A stretch of DNA of 63,987 nt, filler included, from Albugo candida (taxonomy: Eukaryota): NCBI GenBank assembly GCA_040437565.1. It is 18 parts of 18 records of this genome, joined end to end, with 100 filler letters (N's around TTAATTAATTAA, not from the genome) between each part and the next. Parts side by side here need not be neighbours in the genome. Positions count along the whole stretch, not along the records: positions 7,480 to 11,095 come from JBDOQK010000206.1; 17 more parts are not named here. One strand, given 5' to 3'. The number at the start of each line of letters is the position of its first letter. Positions within the stretch are counted from its first letter, which is position 1. Made by a program: the position numbers and the translations under genes. The notes beneath the pieces were generated by a model, which saw only the letters and a list, made by a program, of their open reading frames with translations, had not been told where the DNA came from and ran no database searches. Shown piece by piece: positions 7,480 through 63,502 of the stretch.

Positions 7480-10400
7480 CTGAATTGACAGTTTTAGCTG
7501 TAAAATCGAAACTGTATTCTGTCTCTTGTGTGTGTTCCGGTATTTGTAATGACTGTAATAATTGATACCTATTTATACTTTCAAAAAAAGAAGTTGACGT
7601 TAAGCAACTGAATGAAGCCGTAGTAACTACTCCAGGATCTAAACCTTGGATCAACACTTTGTTTTTCTTCAAATTTTCTAATGTATTTTGTGGTAAGAAA
7701 AAGGCGTCTGTTGTAACTTTAGATGGCATACGTTGGTTATGCAGTTGTTTATTTATCAGATACATGCGGGATTGCTCCGATTTGATCGACGTATTTAATA
7801 CTTGTAATTTATTGTAAATTTTGTTGCAGTCTGAACGCTTTTCCTTCAATTTCTTGTACAATAATTCATCCCAAACGTTTTTCATTTTTTCTGTTTTACG
7901 AAAAGCCCTACCCACATTCATTCGTTCTGTTTCTTCTTCTGATATGGTTTTTAACAACGAGGCGTACTCTTTTTTCTGAGCCTTAATTGAGGTGCTAATT
8001 TTCATGACTTCAGCTTCCATTTCTTTCTTATCAGCGGGTTCAGTAAGTTGATATTGAGAGGAGGCTGTATTGATAGCAGAGGGTTTTAAGAGATCTTGTT
8101 GGTTTTCAGTCTTCTTAGAGTGAGCTTTCTTCCCAAGAAAATTCAGGTCATATTGGTTGTTATATACAAACGAAAATCTTGGAGTCATATTTTGTTTTAC
8201 CAGTAAAGATTCCACGTTGTTCCAATCAAAAAAGTTTTTGAATAAATTGTGTTTTTCCGAGTCGCTTTTGATTTCATGATAGCTTGTAAAAACAACACCA
8301 TTTTCTTTAAAAATATTATATTCTTTGCAAAATAACAAATATAACGTTTGGTGATTAATGCTAATCCCTGGCGTTGCAGTCTTTTCTTTCACCGGGTATA
8401 ATACTCTTTCACGAAACTTCGTCCTTTGCCCAGCAAATCGAACTAAACTATTTCTTAAATACCGAATTTTGTAACACGTTAAAAAGCTTGCTTGATCGTT
8501 TTCTTTTAAAGAAATGTTTCGAAGCGTGTTGGTAACATTCGTGCAGAAATTTATGGCTTTTTGTGGAATAGATTCTTGCTTGTCCTTGTAGAGTTGACTT
8601 TTAAAGTATTCATGGTTGACGTTGCCAACTATACTTGAGGAATTACACATCATTGATGTAACAGCAATCAAAGCGTTTATCTCTTTAGCAGTAAGATCTC
8701 TCTCCTCCTCATCTTGTACATCCAGTATTTCAGTAGAGGTGGGGACTAAAGTATACTCTTCCTCTTGGTCTTCTTCGTCAGAATCACTAGATATGCCTAT
8801 GTATTTATAATAATAATATTAGAATTTAGTGAAATTTTTCAAAAATACATCTGCCGCAACATACTATCTTTATCACTCTCCTCTTTCTCTGTTTCTTTTA
8901 AAAACGAACGACGATAATCTAATACATTATCACCCAAGAAAATAACTTCCACTTGTTTTTCGATACAATGAATCTTATTCTGGCTTGAGTTTTGAAATTT
9001 TGTTAGTAACTCGAAAAGTACATTCATTTTTTGGGAAAGTGATTGAGCCGCTTTGTTTCTTCTTTTATGTGATTTTTTAAAATCTTCTTTCTTTTTTGTA
9101 TATGTTTTCTTTTTTCTAAAAAACCTTTTTGGAGCTAGGTTAATTCTTAAAATTAAAGTGATAGCTACTCCTAAGTCATGTTTGTACTGATTGTAAGACC
9201 ACATGTTTTCAAAATTAATAAAATACTGTCTACAAGCGGTGGCCAAGCTGGGAGTAGTAACGAAATTGCAAAAGTCATCTTCTTCTAATTTATGAGTAAT
9301 AGCATTCACAACGCTAGAGATTAAATGATTTTATTAGCAAATTATTGTAGTAAAAATGTGTGTGGTACTTACTCGGTACATTTTTCTGCTGATTTTTTCC
9401 CTACACAACGTGACATAATGTTCCAAAATCCATTATAAGAAAAAAGATTTTCCTCTTGGAATGACTGAAGAAAGTTTTTATCGGGAAGAAATAGGTCGAG
9501 GTCGTCTTTGCCAATTCCATGTCCACCAAAATCAATATCAGCTAGACGAAAAAATTCACCAGAATTACTACTGTCTGTAACAATATCGCCTGTAATGAGA
9601 AGATCAATTAAAATTTGAATTGCTTTTGACAGTCCATAGATGGCAGCGTGACAAGATGTTTGTAACTCATTTAAGCGTTCATGTAAAGTGTTGTAGTCAA
9701 AATTTTTGTTGACAACACTTTTCAGTGTTTTACCAACACTCATTAATCTATCATTTTCATAATCATCAATATCTTGTGTTATATCACAAAAAATAATAGA
9801 CTGATTTTCTGCTTCCTCTTCATCCGAGTCTTCCTCAGCGTCAGTACTATTTGTATCATTCAATTCAAAATTTCCAGAAAAAAAATCATTAAGCAAAGTA
9901 TCGATAGATAGCTTGTTGTTGTCTTTGAGAGTGGCAATTTTTCGGTGCAACCACATTGCAGATTGCGGAATGTCTGCAGCACTCATACCTTCAATCTCGT
10001 TGTTCTTCAACATCTGTTCAATTTTCCCTTTTACAACTGGAATAACACCTGTTGGCATTTGTTTGGTAGATAATGTTGATCGAAAATACCTGATTAATGC
10101 AGCATCTTCAGCGTTTCTTCTTCCTGTATTTCTCCGGAGAAAGTTCTGCCATTTAGTTGTATATATTTCGTTCGCCTCCTCCCTCACAAGTCGAATAATT
10201 GTGTCATCCAACCTTTTCCCCAGTTTGTGTTTCTCCTTTGTGACTTTTTTCTCTCCTTCTTCTCTTTTTTTTGCTACGAAATAATCATTCTGGTCGTGTT
10301 CAACTTGGTGCTGTTCTGTTATATCTTTTTTCATAGGCTTTTTGTAACATTTAAGAGGGTAATAAGTTGTGTTATTAATATAAGAATCCTTGTGTTCCAA

Positions 10401-11085
10401 AATGTAGAAACAAGGTAACGAATCACGAGATAATATATTTTCAGCTGAATATACAGCAACAGGTTTGGATCTTGTAGAAAAAAGTAAGATTTTGCATTGA
10501 TATAGTTGACATATACCATATACTAGCATTCTTCCTTCAACGTTAGCGGCGCTTCCAGAAGCGATATTAGAATGCATCGTCATAATACGTTCAGTTTGGT
10601 TCGAGTTCAAAAGTTTGGCGATATGGCGACTGCTTACGTGAGTGGGTTGTCGGTCTTTTGAACCATAGCTTACTTGACAAACTTTTATATTGTACTTTTT
10701 GAGGTTTGCGGTGGTTTGAGCCAAGCTTTCTTGAAACGTTCTTGTTTGAAAACCAGTAAAAGCATCCTTGAACGAAGCTATGCTTGTATCGTCTTTTTGG
10801 TTGGGAACTTCAATTTTGTTGTCAAGATTTATCCAAGAAAATCGTAAAATTCCTTCAGGCAAAGTTCCTTTTGTTTGAAATGTTATGAGTATCTTGTTGA
10901 GTTGTTTTCCTATTAGTATAATAATATAGTTAAACTTACCCTGAGAATATCGTTTTCTTTTACCTATGTAATTACATAAAAAATAGAAATCATCAGCTTA
11001 GGTTAGGTAGAGAGTGAAATGCAAATAACTTACTTGAAATCTGCACCCTGTCTTCTTCTCTGTCGGGCTTCGATCTTCTTTTCAT
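7480..11085 (-). CDS. Large Fanzor (TnpB-like RuvC) protein, 5 exons, 3'-truncated by the contig end; >1,112 aa
   Basis: Exons 11085-11034, 10963-10940, 10867-9373, 9313-8865 and 8796-7480 are joined by four GT-AG introns (70, 72, 59, 68 nt) that keep one reading frame. There is an in-frame TAA just upstream of the ATG. The N-terminus MKRRSKP...SKRKRY is NLS-like. Fanzor1-like segments: MSVGKTLKSVV, NFENMW...LILRINLAPKR, VLYP...ISINHQTLYLLF, FKNFFDW and FSFVYNNQYDLNFL. The RuvC-I motif LIQGLDPGVVTTAS has its Asp codon at 7637-7639 (about residue 1060). Confidence 0.75.
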
Positions 11086-11196
11086 ATGTTATCGTNNNNN
11101 NNNNNNNNNNNNNNNNNNNNNNNNNNNNNNNNNNNNNNNTTAATTAATTAANNNNNNNNNNNNNNNNNNNNNNNNNNNNNNNNNNNNNNNNNNNNA

Positions 11197-33380: not shown

Positions 33381-36300
33381 TCACTGTTGATGCTCGGGTC
33401 CATCACGTACCTTGATGTCCATTCCGGCACGGAGGTACTGGAATCGCTTGGTGCCGAGTGCCTTCGTTAGTATGTCGGCAAGTTGATGTTCCGTCTCCTT
33501 GTAGATCACCTTTATATCACCGGCCAGAACTTTCTCTCGGACAAAGTGGTGACGTATGTCTACGTGTTTAGTCCGCGCATGGTATCCTGGGTTTGTTGCG
33601 AGAGCAATGGCTCCTTGATTATCCTCGTAGATGACAGTAGGATTCTTCTGCTCGAATCCGAGGTCAGCCATTAACATCCTTGCCCATAGTATGTCTTGAG
33701 TGCACATGCTTAGCGCCATGTATTCAGCCTCAGAAGTACTCAATGCAACGGTGCGTTGGTACTTAGACTTAAATATAACAGGGCCTCCATTAAGCACCAG
33801 CAAAACACCAGATACCGATCGACGGTCGTCCAAGCTGTTTCCCCAATCGGCGTCACTATACGCTGTTAGTTGTTGCTGTAGTTTGTCAACACTGTAGTGT
33901 AATCCAAAACCACTCGTCGAGCGGAGGTATCTTAGCACTTTGATCAGTGCCTTCCAGTGTTGTGAGCCAGGGTTTTCTGCAAATCGTCCAAGTTGGCTCA
34001 CAGGAAATGCTGCGTCTGGTCTGGTCGTGGTCACTATAAACAGCAGTCGTCCCAGCAATTGGCGGTACGGTGTACGACTCATGGCTTGTCTTTCGACATC
34101 GGACTTTGGACTGTTTGCGCTGGACAGTTTCATGCTCTGATCACATGGGTTACCAGTTGGTCGGGCTTGAGTCTGTCCAAACATGTCTGCAGTCTCCTCG
34201 ATGTATCTTTGTTGCGAAATAAACATCTCACGCTTCTTTCGGTCGTACATAACTTCCATTCCAAGCAAGTGCTTCACTGGACCAAGGTCTTTGGTTTGAA
34301 ACCGCTGAGAGATTTGTTCTTTCACCTTGCGTACCGTGGTTGCTTCTTTTGCAGCCACAATCATATCATCAACGTATAAGCACACGTACGCCCAGCCTTC
34401 ACCATCCTTTATCTTGTATATGCATCGATCAGCACCGCACGCGACAAATCCCATCTCCAGTAATGCATTGTGAATCGTCTTATTCCAGGCATTTGCAGCC
34501 TGCTTAAGTCCGTAAAGCGCGCGATTCAATTTAAGTACAAACTCGCTGCCAATTTTCATCCCTTTGGGTGGTAACAAGTATACTTCTTCTTGTAGGTCGG
34601 CATTCAGGTAGGCCGTATCAACATCAAGCTGGTCGATCACATATCCTGCTGCGCAGCAAATCGACAATAGCATCCTGATGGAGTTCATACTGGCGACAGC
34701 CGCGTACGTCTCGAAAAAGTTGATACCATATTGTTGCAGGAATCCGAGCGCCACAAGTCGTGCTTTGTATCGACCATCACTCTTTTTAGCCCATACCCAC
34801 TTCGATCCAATTGGTTTCATTCCAGGCTTGCGTACAATTGGTGTCCACGTCTTGTTACGCTCATGAGCCGCAAATTCATTCTCAATAGCTTTAATCCATT
34901 GGTATCTGTCAGGTCCATTCACTGCCTCCGCATAAGAGCCAGGTAAATCACGAGCTATCATGGCAACTTCTGCTATCAATGCCACATCGCTGTTTATTCG
35001 CGATCGCTTGGAAGGAGGTTCGTCATCTTCACTCCCACTGGCTTCATGGTTTTCATTGTATGGCACAATGCTGTTTTCTGTTGTGGTACTAGTGTTATTG
35101 TCTTCCAACAAGAGCTGAACAGGTTGCTCAATTGGTAGCATTTCATCAACACCTCCTCGTGGTCCGGATTCACTTCTCCCACTGGCATCGTCAGTAAGAA
35201 CACGATACTGATGCTCGCGACCGGAACGACGCTTAAGTTGTGGACGGAACACCATCGCTCCAGAGTCGTGCGGATTGTGTAATTCGAGTTCTTGGTGACG
35301 AGGTCCTTGTTGAATTACTTGGGAAGTGTGTTGATGTTGTTCGTTGTTCATATTTCTTGCAAGATAATGATTGCTTGTCTCACTCGAAGGTGTGTTACTG
35401 ATGTCATTGTCAGAACTCGGTACTTCCATCTCCACATCTTCGACAATTTCGTGCTCTTCCATTTCAACATCTTCATCACCATCTTGTTGCAAGTTACTTG
35501 GTTGATCTCCATCATCGTCATCTTGTCGTATTATTATCATCTTCGGGTGTGGTACAACCGGATTGTCTTCGTAAATGTTACTAACTTCACGTTCATCTAA
35601 CGCGATCGAACGACTGATCTTGATCGTACCAGTCTCCAGATCAAGCACCCTGTAACCCTTGGTGTGTCTTGCATATCCTAACAGCATGCAGCGAAACCCT
35701 TTCGCGTCGAATTTCGTGCGCTTTGAGTCATCGATATGTGCGTATCCAAGTGAACCAAATACACGTAGGTGAGAAATTTCGGGCTTCGTCTTAAAGCACA
35801 GTTCAAAAGGAGTCTTCTCCTCGTGATTGCAGTTCGTGGTTCTGTTAAGTAAATACACCGCCGTATTCACAGCTTCGGCCCACCACTTCTTTGCCACACG
35901 CTTGTAATGCATCATGCTTCTGGCCGTCTCAACAATCGTACGGTTCATCCGTTCAGCAACACCGTTTTGTTGAGGACTGTAGGGTACTGTCTTCTGATGG
36001 ATGATGCCGTGTTTCTTGCAGTACGAAGCAAACCTCTTGTTTTTGTATTCACCGCCATTGTCAGTACGTATGGCCTTAATACGAAATCCACACTGCTGCT
36101 CCATCTCGGTCCGAAATTCAATGAACTTCGACAGTACTTCACTCTTGGACTTCAGAAAATATACAGTCACTAATCTTGAAAAATCGTCCACGAGAGACAA
36201 TACGTATCGTGACCCACCAGGAGTTGGGTTCTTCATAGGGCCCATGACGTCAGAGTGAATAAGCTGCAGTGGCTGCGTTGTCTTTGTCTTCGACTCTTGT

Positions 36301-36614
36301 GGAAAACTCGCGACACACAGTTTCCCTTGTAGACACCCTCCACACAAATTCTTGTTCGTGTCAGGTACTACATTCGGTAGTCCTTCCGTAGCCTCCTTTG
36401 TCTTTTTAAACTTGTTGTGGCTAATGTGACCCATTCGTGCATGCCACAGCTCCCACTTGTTACCAGCGTCTTCATGTTCTACCAACATCGCGTGCTCATA
36501 CTCCACATCAAGAGTGTACACGCTTCTCATGCGCTTCGCAGAAATCATCAACACATTATCCTTGTAGATACCGCAGTATTTTTCACCGAATCGAACGTTG
36601 TACCCACGCTGGAC
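33381..36614 (-). CDS. pol: Ty1/Copia Pol (GAG-pre-integrase, integrase, RT, RNase H), intact, 5'-partial
   Basis: The frame is open from the contig edge. Motifs in INT-RT-RH order: LWHARMGH...CGGC, IHSDVMGP, IRTDNGGEY, QNGVAERMNRT, YKARLVALGF, LYGLKQA, LYVDDM, YSDADW, EDNQGAI and ADILTKAL. Confidence 0.97.
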   Translation of the reverse strand, partial: VQRGYNVRFGEKYCGIYKDNVLMISAKRMRSVYTLDVEYEHAMLVEHEDAGNKWELWHARMGHISHNKFKKTKEATEGLPNVVPDTNKNLCGGCLQGKLCVASFPQESKTKTTQPLQLIHSDVMGPMKNPTPGGSRYVLSLVDDFSRLVTVYFLKSKSEVLSKFIEFRTEMEQQCGFRIKAIRTDNGGEYKNKRFASYCKKHGIIHQKTVPYSPQQNGVAERMNRTIVETARSMMHYKRVAKKWWAEAVNTAVYLLNRTTNCNHEEKTPFELCFKTKPEISHLRVFGSLGYAHIDDSKRTKFDAKGFRCMLLGYARHTKGYRVLDLETGTIKISRSIALDEREVSNIYEDNPVVPHPKMIIIRQDDDDGDQPSNLQQDGDEDVEMEEHEIVEDVEMEVPSSDNDISNTPSSETSNHYLARNMNNEQHQHTSQVIQQGPRHQELELHNPHDSGAMVFRPQLKRRSGREHQYRVLTDDASGRSESGPRGGVDEMLPIEQPVQLLLEDNNTSTTTENSIVPYNENHEASGSEDDEPPSKRSRINSDVALIAEVAMIARDLPGSYAEAVNGPDRYQWIKAIENEFAAHERNKTWTPIVRKPGMKPIGSKWVWAKKSDGRYKARLVALGFLQQYGINFFETYAAVASMNSIRMLLSICCAAGYVIDQLDVDTAYLNADLQEEVYLLPPKGMKIGSEFVLKLNRALYGLKQAANAWNKTIHNALLEMGFVACGADRCIYKIKDGEGWAYVCLYVDDMIVAAKEATTVRKVKEQISQRFQTKDLGPVKHLLGMEVMYDRKKREMFISQQRYIEETADMFGQTQARPTGNPCDQSMKLSSANSPKSDVERQAMSRTPYRQLLGRLLFIVTTTRPDAAFPVSQLGRFAENPGSQHWKALIKVLRYLRSTSGFGLHYSVDKLQQQLTAYSDADWGNSLDDRRSVSGVLLVLNGGPVIFKSKYQRTVALSTSEAEYMALSMCTQDILWARMLMADLGFEQKNPTVIYEDNQGAIALATNPGYHARTKHVDIRHHFVREKVLAGDIKVIYKETEHQLADILTKALGTKRFQYLRAGMDIKVRDGPEHQQ

Positions 36615-43872: not shown

Positions 43873-46666
43873 CGATGGTAATGCTGAAAAATATAAAAAT
43901 ATATTTCATATACTCATCAAGCTTTTATTATAATAGTTATCGATGATGATGCTCCAGCTGATTCTGAAAGTTCTTCAGTTTTCCCAACTGAACCTCTTGC
44001 TATCATTTTCTTGATGTTGCTCTTGTACTTGAACGCCAAGTTTTTGACAGTGGAAGGATGTGAAGTAGTTATGGGATTTTTGAATTTAGCGTTGAAAGTT
44101 AGTGGGTCAACTTTCCAGTTTCCCGCTAGCATGAAAACCTTTACTAAAAGATTTGATTTCGATCAACACTTTCATTCCGGTTTGAAAACTTATGTTTCTT
44201 GTATCAAATGTCACTCAGTTTATGATATGCCTGAAAATCAGTATGAACGAGATCAACATAAAAAGTGCACTTTTGCCAGAAGTGTTTCTTTGATTGACGA
44301 TCGAGTTTTGGGATACTGTGGTCAAGAACTTTATGATGTGTCTAATGCAAACAATCTCTTACCAAAAGCTATTTATATGTACAACTCTGTTGTTACTACT
44401 TTAAAGAAGTTTTATTTACGTGAGGGGTTTGCAAAGGCAATTTCAGCTTGGAAAACTAGAAACATGACTCACCCTGATTATCTTTTTGATGTATACGATG
44501 GTGATGTATTTAAAAATTTTAAATTGAACGATTCTGATACTACTGCTTTTGTTGATCAAAGTGATAATAACTTGCAATTATCCTTAAACATTGATTGGTT
44601 TACTACCTTTAAAAATTCTGCTGAACATAGTTTAGGTGCGATTTATATCACCATTTTAAACCTCCCTTTACCTATGAGAAACATGAAGAATTATATGATT
44701 TTTGCTGGATTATTACCTGGTGGCCATGGAGAACCAAGCCTTGATCAAATTAATCATTATTTAAGACCATTAGTAGACGAACTGGAATTGTTAAAAAATG
44801 GTGTCATTGTTACATCTCCTGATATTGAAGGTGAATTTGTTATGAAAGCTGCTTTGACGCTCATTGTTTGTGATCTTCCTGGGGCATCAAAAGTAACTGG
44901 TCTTTCGTACTTTAACAGTACTTATGCTTGTAAAAAATGCGATAAACCTTTTGATACAATTACACCTGGTTCAAAACAAATCGATTTCTCTGACATGGAT
45001 TATGAAAATTATCCTTTGCGTACCAAAGAAAGCAATTTTAGATATGCCAATCATTTTAAACTACTTCGCAGCCAAGCAGCAAAACAAGATTATGTTCGTC
45101 AACATGGTACAAGATGGAGTGAATTTCACCGTTTGCCTTATATCGACCTCATTAGGTTCACTGTAATAGATAGCATGCACAACTTGTGGCTCGGAAGTAG
45201 TAGAAGAATTATGGTCAACATATTTATTGAAAGAGGATTTATAACAACTGATGATTTAAAAGAAATGGCTGCTGTATGTAGAAAAATTAAACTTCCGTTT
45301 GGATATGACAATTCTTCCATGGCTCGTAAAATCACAGCTGGATCTGGATTTACCTATTTCAAGGCTGCTGATTGGAAGGTCTTTATGATCGTACTTTCTC
45401 CTTTGTTACTTAAAGGTAAACTTCCTAATGATATGTATAATAATTGGATGCTTTTTGTTTCTGCTTTTGAAACTATGGGTTTACCTCAAATATCACGCCA
45501 ACAACTAGAACAATGCCAAGAAAAAATTGCTGAATTTGGTCGTGGATTTCTTCGTTTGTATGGTAAAGAAAGTATCATGTCTAATTTGCATTATCATTTT
45601 CATTTAAAGGTAAAAAATAACATGAAACAAAATATATTATATAATGTACTAATTATATTTATTTTTCTTATTGCTTTACAAAAAAAAAAAAAAAAAAAAA
45701 AAGATGGATTGTGAAGCATATGGTCCTTTCCACAGTCACTCAACATTTGTTTATGAAAGGTACCATTCTTACTTGAAATCTGTTCACACGAACAATAGAA
45801 ACGGTTTAGAAAGTACTATCCACAAAAAGATCTTAAACAACATTCATGCAAATGATATTACCAGCAATATTCCTTCTATTGGTAACGATGAAATGAATCA
45901 TAAACTGAAGAAATTATATGAAGGAAAAGATATAAATGACACCCAAGAAAACTATTATAATACTTACTTGAGAGAGGAAATGGATTTCGTGATGAGTGAA
46001 AATAATTTCAACTTGGCTGAATTTGTGAATTATTCTGGATATTTAGACCAAGGAGGATATAAAAGAGCTTTGGGATGGGAGCCATTACCTCCAACTACAA
46101 TCGCATCAATGAAGTTTAAAAGAAAGAGCTTACCTATGAAACAAATCGAATTTGAACAATTAATTTCGTATTATTCATGCTATTTCGATTTTAGTTTTTA
46201 TGGTGAACACCAAGACACGTCTGATTTAATAGCAGATACCTATTCAGTAGTAAGAAACAAAATCATAAGATTCAACTCTGTAAAAATACTTGGATATAGA
46301 TATAATTCTATTGAAGCAGCAAGTCCTAGATCAAGTATTGTCCGTGCCTATCATTATGGTGATGATACCTTAAGACCTGCTCAAATCCAGTATTTTTTCA
46401 GGCACGATTGCCATTTAAGAAACGATGAAAATGAAATAAGTCTTGTAACGTCAACATATGCATACGTGAAATGGTATCAAGAAAGTGTTATTCCTCTTAC
46501 TACTTTTAACTCTTTAAATACTTTTACCTACGACACTAAGTTTATGCCTGAGTCAGAAAATTGTATTATTCCTATTCATTCGATCCACTCTCCTGTCGGG
46601 TTTTACTTAAACTGTTTATCAGGTTATAATATGTTCATAAAATTTCCTCGAAAAATAACCGATTAA
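43873..46666 (+). CDS. CACTA/EnSpm (Transposase_21/tnp2-like) transposase, 5'-partial, intact, fungal-type
   Basis: Introns at 43878-43936 and 45610-45703 are in phase. Motifs: CIKC, DVYDG, LNIDWF, ILNLP..R, INHYLRPLVDEL, CDLPG.SK...ACKKC, IDSMHNLWLG, NLHYHFHL, FVYERY and RPAQIQYFF. Confidence 0.92.
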
Positions 46667-58601: not shown

Positions 58602-61401
58602 ATGCCTGCTCATAAACGAAGTAGAGAAGAAAAAGGAAAGGGTAGAGCAACTAATGTAAACTCTAGTCCTACAGAAAATAACAACAAAGAGAAAATATAC
58701 ATAAGGTTTCCGGCATCTATGTTAAAAAAGATTGCTGTACCTGATGTAACAACATCTACTACAATCCCAGTAGAAGATGCAAACACTACTACTGATGTTG
58801 AAGTTAGAGAACCAACACAAACTTCAGCACCAATTTTACAACAAAGAATTCGTTTGAAAATTAACACAAACGTTTCTAATCACCAAGAAAGAGCCAGGAT
58901 GTCAAATGCTGAAAAACAAGCGCGTTATAGATTAGCTCATCCTGAAGAAGTGGCTGCATTCCAAAGCATGTACCGAGCTGAACATGTCAATGAGGCTAGT
59001 CAATATAGAGCTGAACATGTCAATGAGGCTCGTCAATACAGAGCCGAACATCTTAATGAGGCTCGTCAATACAGAGCCGAACATCTTAATGAGGCTCGTC
59101 AATATAGAGTAGAACATGCAGCCGAAGCTCGCCAGTATAGAGCTGCACATGTCGATGAAGCACGTGAATATAGGCAAAATCGTCGTGCTCAGCGCGAAAA
59201 CCAAGCACCTGAAGTGAGTTTTTCTTGTTTTTGTAAAATATATATAATAAAAGAGCTGCAAAAATATTAATCTATGTCAACGTAGGTCAATATGCGATGG
59301 AGAGATAGTGTAATTCAATATGAACGTGAAATTAGAAGTGGACCAACAGTTATTTGCTTTTGTTGCACTAATTTATATTTTAAAAAAAGCACCACTTTAA
59401 TTAGTAAAGACAAACTTTGTGAATGGGGATGCGAACCTAATGTAGTAGAGCAAGCATTTTGGGCAGTAGATAGTGACGTTTTAAATGAAGATTTAGTTGC
59501 TGATGTACCAGTAAATCAAAGTGAACCTGAATCTGAAGAGACAATTTTTTATAGAGTGTGTTTGACATGTAGAGATACGTTTAAAAAAATGAAAAAGCTA
59601 CCTACTATTGCTGCATATAACGGATTGGCATTTCCTAAAAAGGTTGCCTGTGTCGATAGTTTAACTCGTTTAGAAGAAAGACTTGTAGCCCCAAGACATA
59701 TATTTCAATCCCTTTGGACACATAAAGGTATTCATGGACAATATCGTAGCAAAGGTGCAATCGTAAACGTTCCTGTAACAGTTGATACCACCGTTTCGTC
59801 TTTCCCTCAAAATTATGATGACTCTTCTACTATACATGTACATTTGGCACGTAAAATGGAGTACACTAAAAACTATATGCAAGGAGTTGTTAGTCCAGCT
59901 AAAATATGGGAGGCTGCTAGATACCTTCAATCCACACCATTATATATTGCCCATGATATTCAATTAGCAGATCAAGATGAATGGAATCAAAACAATATTG
60001 CTGATATTCCTATCGATGATGAAGATACTACTGAAGTAGTTCCTGCAGGTAATAATAATGATGATATTCAAAATGGTGATGGAACAAACAATACCGCTTT
60101 TGATGATAATAATCGTTATTCTGATGATGAAGATTTCGGAGAAGAATTGGATGCTCAGCTTCTAGAAGAACTTATTAATTGGGACGCAGAGGGTATCTAT
60201 GCTATTGATGAAGAAGAGGATGAAGAAGAAAATCAAAACAGCGAACAAAATAATACTAATGATACCACTGGCGTTGATCAAAATGATGATGAATATTTAG
60301 TAAATCCTGGAGTCAGAGAAACTTTGGTTATAGACGAAAACCAAATTTTAAGAATAGCACCTGCTGAGGGAAGCACTCCCTTATCAATCTTAATGGATGA
60401 TGAGTGTATATTCTTGGCATTTGTCAAAATCTTCTACGGACAAAGACTTAATACAGCAACAAATGTCTCAAAACATGCCATGTTTAAATCATTGATACGA
60501 AGTTTTGATAGAAGAGCAGCTACCCGGCCTGACCTTTTACTTTTTATGAATAGCAATATATTACTAAACAAACTGAAATCAAACATAAACATTATAGCAA
60601 GAAAGCGTACCCAAAATACTGAAGATGGTATGGTAGCATTAACTGCAGCCAACGTTTCTGATTCTGGTTATGTTGATAGCATGTTAAGTGCCGATCAGGC
60701 ATATAAAGTTTTCTCTGGGATTAGATCCTCGTCAACGTACTGGAAAGGGCAAAAGAAAAATGTTATGGCAATGATTGCTCAATTTGGTATCCCAACACTA
60801 TTCGTAACATTGTCAGCAGCCGAAAGCTATTGGCCAGAGCTTTTATGTATCCTTAAAAAAGTAATCGACAATGATACAATTACTGAACTAGAGGCAGAGC
60901 AACTGTCATTTACTGAGAAGGCTCGTTTGATCCAAAGTGATCCTGTAACTTGCGCTCGTTATTTTGATCATAGGTTTCGTGAACTGAAAAAAGCTATGAT
61001 GTTAGTTAATGATGATGGTCCTTTTGCTGGTTATGAGGTTCGAGAATATTATTTTAGAGTAGAATTTCAACATAGAGGTAAGAAACATTACAATTTTAAA
61101 TCATGTTCGAATTTATTATAGATTGGCTAAAAAAAAATCCTTTTGCATACAATAGGTTCACCGCATATTCACATGCTTGTTTGGTTAAAAAATGCTCCCC
61201 TCTTTGAAGACAAAATGTGTGACACTCGAGAAGAAGCAGAAATAATCCATCAAAGTATTTGCGATTTTGTCAACAAAATCATCACTTGTCAAAAAAATTG
61301 GGATGGTTCAGCTCATCATCAAGATGAAACATTATGCACGGAAGAAACATGGAAAGATCTTTTAAAATCAAGACAAACACATAAGCACACGCACACGTGC
61401 A
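58602..61401 (+). CDS. Helentron/Helitron2-type Rep(-helicase) protein, 3'-truncated
   Basis: Exons 58602-59213, 59286-61077 and 61156-61401. It has a CxxC...CxxC zinc finger and a DUF6570-like segment LTRLEERLVAPR...GQYRSKGAIVNVP. Rep motif 1 is GIPTLFVTLSAAE, followed by DPVTCARYF and the HUH motif YFRVEFQHRG|SPHIH, then QTHKHTHTC. Confidence 0.9.
58971..59168 (+). repeat. Coding tandem repeat, 6 x 33 bp (YRAEHxNEARQ)
   Basis: Units start at 58971, 59004, 59037, 59070, 59103 and 59136. Units 3 and 4 are identical. Confidence 0.95.
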
Positions 61402-61501: not shown

Positions 61502-63502
61502 ATATGTGGTGACTCGAACCTAGTGATCAGGCAAATGCGGGGAGAGATGGATTGCAAAGCGCCCGGACTACAGTTACTGCGTCACAAAGCAATGCAGAAA
61601 CTTCGATCTTGGCCAAAACACGAGTTCCTACATATGAAGAGGGAGTGGAACCAAAGCGCGGATCGACTAGCTAGTGCAGCTTTGCAGCAAGAGAAAGGTG
61701 TCATTGTGAACTTGGATCAAGAATTGCAAGAGCTGATATCACTTAACCGGTTGCACGAGTTGCTTCTGCCAGAAAGGACGGATTGCGTGGTGAAAATGAT
61801 GGCGATTACACGATCCGCGCGGCGAAGACGTCAACAACCCGAAGTTTTACAAGAAGAAATAGTACAGCGGATGCGGATCGAGCGGATAAAACAAGCGCAA
61901 GAAGAAGAGAGCTGGATCGCCAACCTGAAGGAATATATTGTGGGCGATCTGACACATATAAATGCAGAGGATGCAAAATTATGCGCTAGGATCGCTCCAG
62001 ACTACGAAGTGGACGAAAACGGATTGCTGTTCTTCAGCCCCCGATCCGCTAAAGAATCAGACGATCGTATGGAGATGGTCCGTCTGGTTGTACCGGAATT
62101 GTTGCAGGAAGACTTTATGCACCATTACCACACGAGCTTAGAGGGTGGTCACCAAGGGATCGGGAGGACTTATCAGCGGATCAGATCCAACTTTCACTGG
62201 AGAGGATTGTATCGGAGCGTGCAACGTTATGTTGGCAAATGCGTGGACTGTACAACCGGGAAGGGTCTACCCGCGATCCGCGGCAGATCTCCGGGAAACA
62301 TACAAGCTACGTACCCATTTCAAGTGATCGCGATGGATCATATCCCATCATTGCCGCGGTCATTTAAAGGAAACACAGAATTGCTGCTGTGGGTAGATCT
62401 ATTCTCAGGGTATGTGATCGCGAGAGCAAGTTCGTCGAGGACCGCGCAAGCGATCGCTGAAGGATACGAAGAATGTGTGTTTCGAAGATTTGGAGCCAGT
62501 GAAGCTATACGTCACGACAGGGAGCCTGGATTTATGTCCGACTTTTTCAGGGCATTTAATCGGATCGCAGGGCAGAAGCAACGTGCGACCATGGCGTACC
62601 GACCGCAAGCGAACGGAACTGCGGAGCGTATGGTGCAGACGTTGACTCGGTCGATTAAGATGTACGTCACGGACGTAGAGCAGAAAGACTGGGATGAATA
62701 CGCAGAAAGATTGACATTTGCCATGAATACGGCACACGATCGGATCCGCGGAGATACTCCGTTCTATTTGATCCATGGTTGGGATCCAAGATCGACACTG
62801 GAAGCAACATTACCGTTGGGGAGCACTAAAACACGCGATGCTGATCCTAGAAGGTGGCGATATAACATCCAGCGTCAATATCAGAAGGCAAGAGAAGTGG
62901 TGAACGAACGTCTCAGGATCGCGATCCAAGATCGAGCGGATCGACACAATGGTAATGATGAAGTGTGTGATATTAAGTGCGGATCGCAAGTTTGGCTCTA
63001 CTTGGATCGAGTAAAAGACGGCTATGCTCGAAAGTTAGCACATATGTGGCATGGGCCATTTCGAGTGGCGGAGTTGTGTGGAGAACATGCGGTTCGGGTG
63101 GAGATCTCAGGAACTCCATACCGATTGTTCCCGATAGTGCACGTCTCCAAGTTAAAGCCAGTGCTACAGTTCCCGGATCGCCCAAGCAGTGTGCTGGTAA
63201 CTGACTGTGGAGATCGTGTGGATTTCGACGAGTCGTTGTTGCCGGAAGACAGTTGGGAAGGCGAGTTGGCTGCTGACGAATACGAAGTGGAGAAGATCTT
63301 GGATGTACGATCAGGACGTAAAACTCGTTATGGCCGAGTGCATCGACAGTTTCTGGTTCAATGGAAGAAACACGACGATCCGACCTGGATAGACGAAGCG
63401 GACCTGAACTGTGGCGCGTTGTTGCAAGATTTCGAGCGCAATCGTGTGAGTCACAACCGGTTTGAAGTTATGCAGTCACATGAGGAGGAAACCGAAGATT
63501 AA
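61502..63502 (+). CDS. pol: Ty3/Gypsy Pol C-terminal half (archaeal-type RNase H, integrase, chromodomain), Chronos-like, 5'-partial
   Basis: ICGDSNLVIRQMRG...WNQSADRLA (aRH), HHYH...GGHQG...CVDC, AMDH, RHDREPGF, QANGTAER, WHGPF, VHVSKLK and YEVEKILDVR...FLVQWK...PTW (chromodomain). The frame is uninterrupted. Confidence 0.95.
   Translation: MCGDSNLVIRQMRGEMDCKAPGLQLLRHKAMQKLRSWPKHEFLHMKREWNQSADRLASAALQQEKGVIVNLDQELQELISLNRLHELLLPERTDCVVKMMAITRSARRRRQQPEVLQEEIVQRMRIERIKQAQEEESWIANLKEYIVGDLTHINAEDAKLCARIAPDYEVDENGLLFFSPRSAKESDDRMEMVRLVVPELLQEDFMHHYHTSLEGGHQGIGRTYQRIRSNFHWRGLYRSVQRYVGKCVDCTTGKGLPAIRGRSPGNIQATYPFQVIAMDHIPSLPRSFKGNTELLLWVDLFSGYVIARASSSRTAQAIAEGYEECVFRRFGASEAIRHDREPGFMSDFFRAFNRIAGQKQRATMAYRPQANGTAERMVQTLTRSIKMYVTDVEQKDWDEYAERLTFAMNTAHDRIRGDTPFYLIHGWDPRSTLEATLPLGSTKTRDADPRRWRYNIQRQYQKAREVVNERLRIAIQDRADRHNGNDEVCDIKCGSQVWLYLDRVKDGYARKLAHMWHGPFRVAELCGEHAVRVEISGTPYRLFPIVHVSKLKPVLQFPDRPSSVLVTDCGDRVDFDESLLPEDSWEGELAADEYEVEKILDVRSGRKTRYGRVHRQFLVQWKKHDDPTWIDEADLNCGALLQDFERNRVSHNRFEVMQSHEEETED

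Follow-up and report, generated by a model that had tools for sequence, protein, structure and literature searches.

Fanzor1 proteins are eukaryotic relatives of the bacterial RNA-guided nuclease TnpB, and Fanzors are, to our knowledge, the only RNA-guided DNA endonucleases native to eukaryotes; they are under development as compact genome editors. We analysed a stretch of 63,987 nucleotides (nt) from an Albugo candida assembly, here called the window, in which 18 contigs are joined end to end and whose third contig (window 7480-11095, 3,616 bp, GC content 0.34) carries a large gene on its minus strand. This contig very probably carries a transposon-type Fanzor1 gene, expressed and with introns, of which it includes about 83%, from the 5' side. 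The gene is cut at its 3' end by the contig edge, and the contig lies wholly inside the gene.

Among described systems, SpuFz1 of Spizellomyces punctatus (PDB 8GKH, 9CEU-9CEZ) is the only significant sequence match in the PDB and gives the best structural score in VIA (Z 14.8, root-mean-square deviation 8.2-8.9, sequence identity about 16%). It shares with the clade of the window gene the order REC/WED, RuvC-I, RuvC-II, zinc ribbon and RuvC-III. In contrast to SpuFz1, which by the catalytic numbering in its paper is a protein of about 640 amino acids (aa) with its RuvC-I aspartate at D383, the window protein reaches this aspartate only at residue 1060. The RuvC-I motif reads D-x-N in SpuFz1 (D383, N385) and D-P-G in the window clade. 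This clade further differs by an additional module of about 520 aa and by a helical hairpin that is much longer. PpFz1 of Parasitella parasitica (PDB 9CF0, 9CF1) is the top Foldseek match (1.4e-6) and gives the longest VIA alignment (442 residues). It comes from the Mucorales, as do most of the named relatives of the window protein, and Parasitella also has a member of the window clade (P0009). The extra length of PpFz1 is described in PMC11423790 as an insertion of about 100 aa within RuvC that binds cyclophilin. The window clade, in contrast, has its extra length at the N-terminus, with no RuvC insertion evident, because the RuvC-I Asp and RuvC-II Glu are 161 aa apart in the relative P0109 and 158 aa apart in SpuFz1 (the following distance, from Glu to the RuvC-III Asp, is 55 against 65 aa).

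Fanzor1-type proteins of giant viruses (BFVD models from Klosneuvirus, Hyperionvirus, Tetraselmis virus and others) match in Foldseek with a best value of 1.1e-10, over 560-930 alignment columns; they are 440-880 aa long, and a sequence scan of IMG/VR found none. TnpB (IS200/IS605) and Cas12f/Cas12j share the core of RuvC and zinc ribbon (TNB), for which the PF07282 match in the relatives is below threshold, and align in VIA with Z 11-12 over 175-215 residues, in region 500-770 of the P0109 model. They are prokaryotic, intron-less and about 400-700 aa long, whereas the window gene has four introns, a start resembling a nuclear localisation signal (NLS) and about three times the length of TnpB. 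Finally, copies of MCi-2, a Mucor circinelloides Fanzor1 reported by Bao and Jurka in 2013, share (PMC3627910) a 6-kb 3' region encoding Fanzor proteins, which is long enough for a protein of the size considered here, and MCi-2 may belong to the same clade as the window gene.

The spliced gene and the public sequencing runs

An earlier interpretation made without database searches (the sequence-only reading) had joined three open reading frames (ORFs) and two micro-exons through four canonical introns into a single frame of at least 1,112 aa, which opens with a basic NLS-like peptide and has a GLDPG motif with intact Asp near residue 1060. Recomputation gave the same model in each of these respects. 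The three minus-strand ORFs occupy 10997-9369 (542 aa), 9330-8839 (163 aa) and 8818-7481 (446 aa, open at the contig end), and at 34% GC, ORFs of 446-542 codons are far beyond chance. Five exons and four GT..AG introns combine into one stop-free frame, which begins with an ATG at 11085, preceded 6 nt upstream by an in-frame TAA. The introns measure 70, 72, 59 and 68 nt, with the donor GTAAGT in three and GTATGT in one, and with AG at every acceptor. Five public sequencing runs share sequence with the contig, X1 from one study and X2-X5 from a second study with a different organism label, and contigs from these runs are cited below where they bear on a feature.

11034-11085, minus strand: exon 1, 52 nt, with the ATG and the start of the basic NLS-like peptide; X2 record 7 covers 11030-11095
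10947-11085, minus strand: span of the NLS-like basic peptide, aa 1-23
10964-11033, minus strand: intron 1, 70 nt, GTAAGT..TAG; joint 10963/11034 in X2 record 7
10940-10963, minus strand: exon 2, a 24-nt micro-exon with the second basic cluster of the NLS-like peptide; X2 record 7 positions 489-512
10868-10939, minus strand: intron 2, 72 nt, GTAAGT..AAG; joint 10867/10940 in X2
9373-10867, minus strand: exon 3, aa 26-524, the N-terminal extension, kept in the relatives P0115, P0116 and P0003
9314-9372, minus strand: intron 3, 59 nt, GTAAGT..TAG; joint 9313/9373 in X2 record 4, short side 48 nt
8865-9313, minus strand: exon 4, aa 525-673, a helical region with basic and acidic linkers; Fanzor1 overlay from about aa 560
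8797-8864, minus strand: intron 4, 68 nt, GTATGT..TAG; joint 8796/8865 in X2 (side 192 nt) and X3 (side 252 nt)
7480-8796, minus strand: exon 5, aa 674-1112, open; Fanzor1 REC/WED-like region and first RuvC strand
7733-8041, minus strand: long helical hairpin, aa 926-1028, predicted by alignment to the P0109 model
7631-7645, minus strand: GLDPG, RuvC-I motif, aa 1058-1062, Asp at aa 1060

The contig edge falls 50 aa past the RuvC-I Asp, and at the other end X2 record 7 extends 51 nt past the contig end at 11095. The share of sampled words found in the runs was 0.89 for X1 and from 0.65 down to 0.11 for X2-X5; from X1, only a 30-nt piece aligned to the contig. Contigs from X2-X4 are at least 99% identical to the window contig, with 14 differing places in 3.6 kb, and all four joints are present in X2 contigs, exactly at the introns of the model, so that the splicing proposed in the sequence-only reading is supported by near-identical sequence. 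One X2 contig of 625 nt crosses exons 3, 2 and 1 through joints 10867/10940 and 10963/11034, exons 3 and 4 are bridged with flanks of 48 and 222 nt, and exons 4 and 5 are bridged twice, with flanks of 192 and 474 nt and of 252 and 283 nt, in frame. None of the run contigs aligned to the contig covers 7480-7530 or crosses 7480.

The deposited protein for this contig, P0001 (900 aa, 'hypothetical protein, partial [Albugo candida]'), departs from the transcript-supported model. It begins at aa 121, drops aa 554-608 (about 9061-9225) as an intron although run contigs cover that stretch continuously, takes a different donor where exon 4 meets exon 5, and stops 39 aa short of the contig end. For annotation purposes, the public gene model of the contig is thus wrong in four places. 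A shorter intron 2 of 30 nt, with TAG at 10910 as its acceptor, would likewise preserve the frame (1,126 aa) and was rejected, as the X2 joint puts the acceptor 42 nt further on. We note that X4 record 14 (10711-10939) retains intron 2 unspliced and ends at its donor, so that spliced and unspliced sequence coexist in that study. In one further X2 contig, 8251 is joined directly to 10432. The 2,180 nt missing between them have TT..AT ends, the short side of the joint is 22 nt, and loose ends occur at 8228 and 10453; this joint, explained either by chimeric assembly or by a copy of the element with an internal deletion, was set aside as unreliable.

Sequence relatives and predicted fold

An exhaustive phmmer search with the 446-aa ORF as query returned 107 relatives at E<=1e-3, of which 49 reached <=1e-10 and 16 reached <=1e-30. 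Over 417 aa, P0109 and the window protein share 43% identity, and exon 4 shares 41-45% with the N-termini of P0109 and P0108. Relatives that continue beyond the point at which the contig ends (P0002, P0004, P0006/P0109, P0014, P0025 and P0108) add about 255-270 aa, in which Asp-Glu-[Tyr/Phe]-x-Ser-Thr-x-Thr-Cys-x-x-Cys, a second Cys pair and Asn-Arg-Asp-x-Asn-Gly-Ala-x-Asn follow one another. These are the RuvC-II Glu, the C4 zinc ribbon and the RuvC-III Asp, which the sequence-only reading had expected to lie past the contig end. The GLDPG of the window protein fits the 'DPG' start of the Fanzor1 pattern given in 10.1101/2023.08.09.552727, and its D, P and G are invariant in all 13 rows of alignment A1, where E684, C694, C720, N737, R738, N741 and others are at least 90% conserved. 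Bao and Jurka (PMC3627910) give for TnpB and Fanzor the C-terminal motif D-X(125,275)-[TS][TS]-X-X-C4-X(5,50)-RD. This motif is carried by P0002, P0004, P0006, P0014, P0025, P0108 and P0109, seven relatives that match by phmmer at E 1e-21 or better or are cluster mates of such matches. When the 18 relatives that extend for 230 aa or more beyond G.DPG were judged against the Fanzor1 pattern of Yoon et al., the strict form was present in eight, these seven included, the shorter form in nine, and neither in nine.

Searches against the PDB agree with this assignment and with the Fanzor identity first proposed from the motif. With P0002 as query against all PDB sequences, SpuFz1 (8gkh) was the sole match (E 0.0081), and a 13-row profile placed SpuFz1 at the top (E 0.0018), the only match below E 0.1, with Cas12f at E 0.39 among the sub-significant rows. 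The printed alignment, once corrected for the offset of 394 due to the maltose-binding protein (MBP) fusion, sets the family's Glu and Asp opposite E541 and D606 of SpuFz1, residues that the SpuFz1 paper names as metal ligands together with D383 and N385. The 446-aa ORF itself found nothing in the PDB by phmmer at E<=10, tblastn against phage records found no match, and no locus of a relative was confirmed in two metagenome scans and one viral (IMG/VR) scan. A protein atlas gave as its lead DUF8286 clusters from Nucleocytoviricota and Mucoromycota. A second partial member of the clade, P0021, 31% identical, comes from a 2,300-bp contig of the same assembly with the same locus-tag prefix; it carries G-I-D-P-G and is likewise cut by its contig end.

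The fold was examined in an AlphaFold model of P0109 (792 aa, 75-row alignment), which has a mean predicted local distance difference test score (pLDDT) of 79.3 and 407 residues at >=90. Foldseek with this model found, after PpFz, AsCas12f and SpuFz at 1e-4 to 7e-4 and ApmFz2 at 1.5e-3, and 23 giant-virus models at E<=1e-3, of which the named ones are TnpB-like proteins or transposases. In VIA, the SpuFz alignment comprises 320-330 residues (P0109 model 36-768 on chain 141-633), that of PpFz has Z 14.0, and Cas12j and Cas12f, at Z of about 12, align in the RuvC part only. RuvC resolvase and YqgF, which the sequence-only reading had raised as alternatives, are absent, with DDE enzymes, among the listed Foldseek and VIA matches to the RuvC part; profile and structure searches alike favour Fanzor1, TnpB and Cas12, and the remaining listed fold matches cover only the long helical hairpin or are weak or of low probability. 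Two helices of the P0109 model, 391-442 and 448-489 (about 50 and 40 residues), form this hairpin, which probably belongs to the REC lobe. The order of segments that had been taken for Fanzor1 WED/REC agrees with the structural overlay from about aa 560 onwards; its first segment, K.LKS, sits instead in the N-terminal module.

Several observations weigh against assigning the contig to an expressed, functional Fanzor1 gene. No Pfam family reached its threshold for the three window ORFs, and PF07282 (Cas12f1-like TNB) was found in four of eight relatives at 18.6-21.3 bits, below the gathering threshold of 26.3. The E-values of the PDB sequence searches are modest. The Fanzor1 fold is that predicted for P0109, 43% identical to the window protein, and its global TM-scores are 0.14-0.23, although low scores are expected when a protein of several lobes is modelled with no nucleic acid present. 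The window contains neither RuvC-II, zinc ribbon and RuvC-III nor the omegaRNA and the ends of the element, and this copy may be broken downstream. No single sequence of about 1,300 aa was found (the range 897-1,334 aa lay outside the search). No RNA run is listed among the public runs that share contig sequence, and the messenger RNA nature of X2-X5 is deduced from the four precise GT..AG excisions. Differences between the window copy and the run contigs comprise 11 non-synonymous and 3 synonymous changes, a ratio of about 0.9, so that recent copies look unconstrained, a pattern suggestive of drift in single recent copies, such as transposon copies undergo.

The N-terminal extension

Adding the 255-270 residues seen in relatives to the 1,112 aa of the frame predicts a full protein of about 1,315-1,330 aa, close to the 1,300-1,450 aa projected by the sequence-only reading. 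Xu et al. (PMC11423790) give 600-700 aa for most Fz1 proteins, and Jiang et al. a mean of 620 aa for Fanzors. Most of the excess lies in an N-terminal module of about 520 aa, and a lesser part, the hairpin, within the REC-like region. The product of exon 3 (aa 26-524) is without counterpart in the structural alignment, and consists of a conserved alpha/beta block, a basic linker, a helical domain, an acidic stretch and a second helical domain.

Searches for relatives of the extension found three within 281-896 aa and none within 30-277 or 1,335-3,810 aa, with 897-1,334 aa left uncovered. P0115 (507 aa) and P0116 (508 aa) match 96-98% of the exon 3 product at 43% identity, and P0003 of Mucor saturninus is 46% identical over its second half, giving a range of 43-47% for the extension across the three. 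In all three, the ORF stops at the position of the exon 3 end, an indication of a conserved intron, and P0003 runs from the extension on into the Fanzor core. P0115, with the extension, and P0004, with the core, both lie on 5,256-bp contigs, which are probably one and the same contig. Taken together, the run contigs bridging exons 3, 4 and 5, P0003, and the pair P0115 and P0004 make a single gene far likelier than two.

The extension found nothing relevant in Pfam at E<=10, and a profile of it retrieved only low-complexity noise from the PDB (E 2.3). A link to OTU proteins, from an atlas cluster in which 19% of members carry OTU (score 0.77), was rejected as too weak, all atlas scores being below 0.8. 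An AlphaFold model of the extension, from a 4-row alignment, had a pLDDT of 42, with only the helical stretch 230-350 reaching 75-86, and gave no Foldseek match at E<=0.001; such failure to match would not amount to proof of a new fold. Within the extension, a block at about aa 115-205 (10600-10330) is strongly conserved in P0115 and P0116, with predicted strands and helices and conserved His, Ser, Cys and Asp; it looks enzyme-like and matched no family. It is most likely that the extension is an accessory part, serving host-factor interaction, chromatin or nucleic acid binding, or enzyme regulation, rather than belonging to the catalytic core.

By analogy with characterised Fanzors, the complete protein of about 1,315-1,330 aa would enter the nucleus by way of its basic N-terminal peptide; we propose nuclear entry because this peptide is present and because Jiang et al. 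find an N-terminal NLS, along with introns, to be typical of Fanzors. It might then bind an omegaRNA made from its element's own 3' end, and a single RuvC site, comprising Asp 1060 and a predicted Glu and Asp beyond the contig, could cut double-stranded DNA beside a short transposon-adjacent motif in the manner of SpuFz1 and PpFz1. Such guided cutting would serve retention or spread of the element, and the extension of about 520 aa would be an accessory, for binding or for regulation. Guidance by RNA and DNA cleavage are proposed here from likeness to these systems, and the part given to the extension is likewise a proposal.

The architecture is thus an unusual one within the known family Fanzor1, and in the literature consulted, main texts without supplementary protein tables, we found no description of a Fanzor1 this large or with such an extension. 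A bolder interpretation is that the gene stands for a distinct clade of double-size Fanzor1 proteins, in which the module of about 520 aa, through an enzymatic, host-factor or chromatin function, confers a second activity or a means of control, and which has moved between zygomycetes and an oomycete; we put this forward tentatively and consider it unlikely. If a clade of proteins of about 1,300 aa is real, eukaryotic Fanzors, like Cas12, would have grown by adding domains, with nuclease control, chromatin tethering and a second enzymatic step in transposition as candidate roles for the added module. If the gene truly belongs to an oomycete, transposon exchange between fungi and oomycetes would be implied.

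Provenance, decay and the other window contigs

The organism of origin bears directly on this last point. It is an even question whether the contig is DNA of a co-sequenced zygomycete rather than a gene of Albugo candida; the gene would still be a Fanzor1, and nothing would then follow for oomycete biology or for cross-kingdom transfer. Clusters of 14 of 20 relatives are named by organism, and apart from the window's own protein and P0021 the remaining 12 are from zygomycete fungi (Mucor seven times, and Parasitella, Rhizopus, Zychaea, Endogone and Modicella once each, with lineages checked). The 90% cluster of the window protein has a single member, and both members of the clade in this assembly, the window gene and P0021, lie on tiny contigs. 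Composition points the same way, the contig having GC 0.34 and a GC content at third codon positions (GC3) of 0.31 where eight other contigs have 0.38-0.52, with four others equally low; low GC3 may, however, merely mark a compartment of DNA transposons. Near-identical sequence also recurs in at least four runs of the second study under another organism label, as would not be expected of a one-off or chance contaminant. Further points against a zygomycete source are that Albugo laibachii is listed with two Fanzor1 families in Table 1 of PMC3627910 and that the nearest relatives are only 43-49% identical, hence no donor is identified.

The window itself allows this compositional argument to be placed in context. 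Its 18 contigs, of 2,486-3,644 bp each, are ordered by length and separated by 17 linkers of N44-TTAATTAATTAA-N44, and because they are separate pieces, any reading of neighbouring genes across a linker would be an artefact. By GC3, long ORFs of the window contigs fall into two classes, one of 0.21-0.34 in five contigs (3, 5, 13, 15 and 17), including the Fanzor1 contig, a tnp2-type element and a Helitron, and one of 0.38-0.52 in eight contigs (2, 4, 6-10 and 18), including Copia and Gypsy elements. Two explanations fit these classes, a second genome within the assembly and an AT-rich compartment of DNA transposons.

A Fanzor1 gene of either origin could be a decaying or domesticated copy, transcribed and spliced and no longer an RNA-guided nuclease, which we consider rather unlikely. 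This would account for the excess of non-synonymous changes (11 to 3) among recent copies, and has parallels in P0070, where Val replaces the RuvC-III Asp, in the P0023 group, which is without the first CxxC, and in the nine of 18 long relatives that fit neither form of the published pattern; the 3' part of the window gene, moreover, lies outside the contig. Yet the frame stays open for 1,112 codons of AT-rich DNA and keeps the RuvC-I Asp, the relatives P0002, P0004, P0006, P0014, P0025, P0108 and P0109 keep every catalytic and zinc residue, and identity of 43-49% along the whole length across species implies long-term selection. That the model wrongly joins two adjacent genes, an N-terminal protein and an ordinary Fanzor1, is highly improbable: the N-terminal part has no detectable relation to Fanzor and most database relatives are separate pieces of ORF size, but run contigs bridge exons 3-4 and 4-5 in frame, the ORFs of relatives end at the exon 3 end as a conserved intron would have it, and the Mucor saturninus model P0003 joins both parts. 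Least credible of all is an origin of GLDPG from another RNase H-like fold (RuvC resolvase, YqgF or DDE transposase), since, frequent as a short hydrophobic strand followed by Asp is in RNase H-like enzymes, the listed Foldseek and VIA rows that cover RuvC are Fanzor, Cas12 and TnpB-type proteins, and the order and spacing of Glu, zinc ribbon and Asp in the relatives fit the published TnpB/Fanzor motif. We retain a transposon-type Fanzor1 gene as the likeliest identity of the contig.

With respect to the element that would carry this gene, terminal repeats are absent from the Fanzor1 contig, where a repeat search gave short chance pairs only, and Rfam gave one chance-level match on the contig (E 0.86). 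Neither a second copy of the gene nor its missing 3' part is present in the other contigs of the window. Those contigs hold transposable-element genes of several other kinds:

33384-36614, minus strand: Copia-type polyprotein (RVT_2, rve)
43897-45711, plus strand: tnp2-family transposase
59286-61118, plus strand: Helitron-like protein (Helitron_like_N, DUF6570)
61502-63499, plus strand: Gypsy-type integrase with chromodomain

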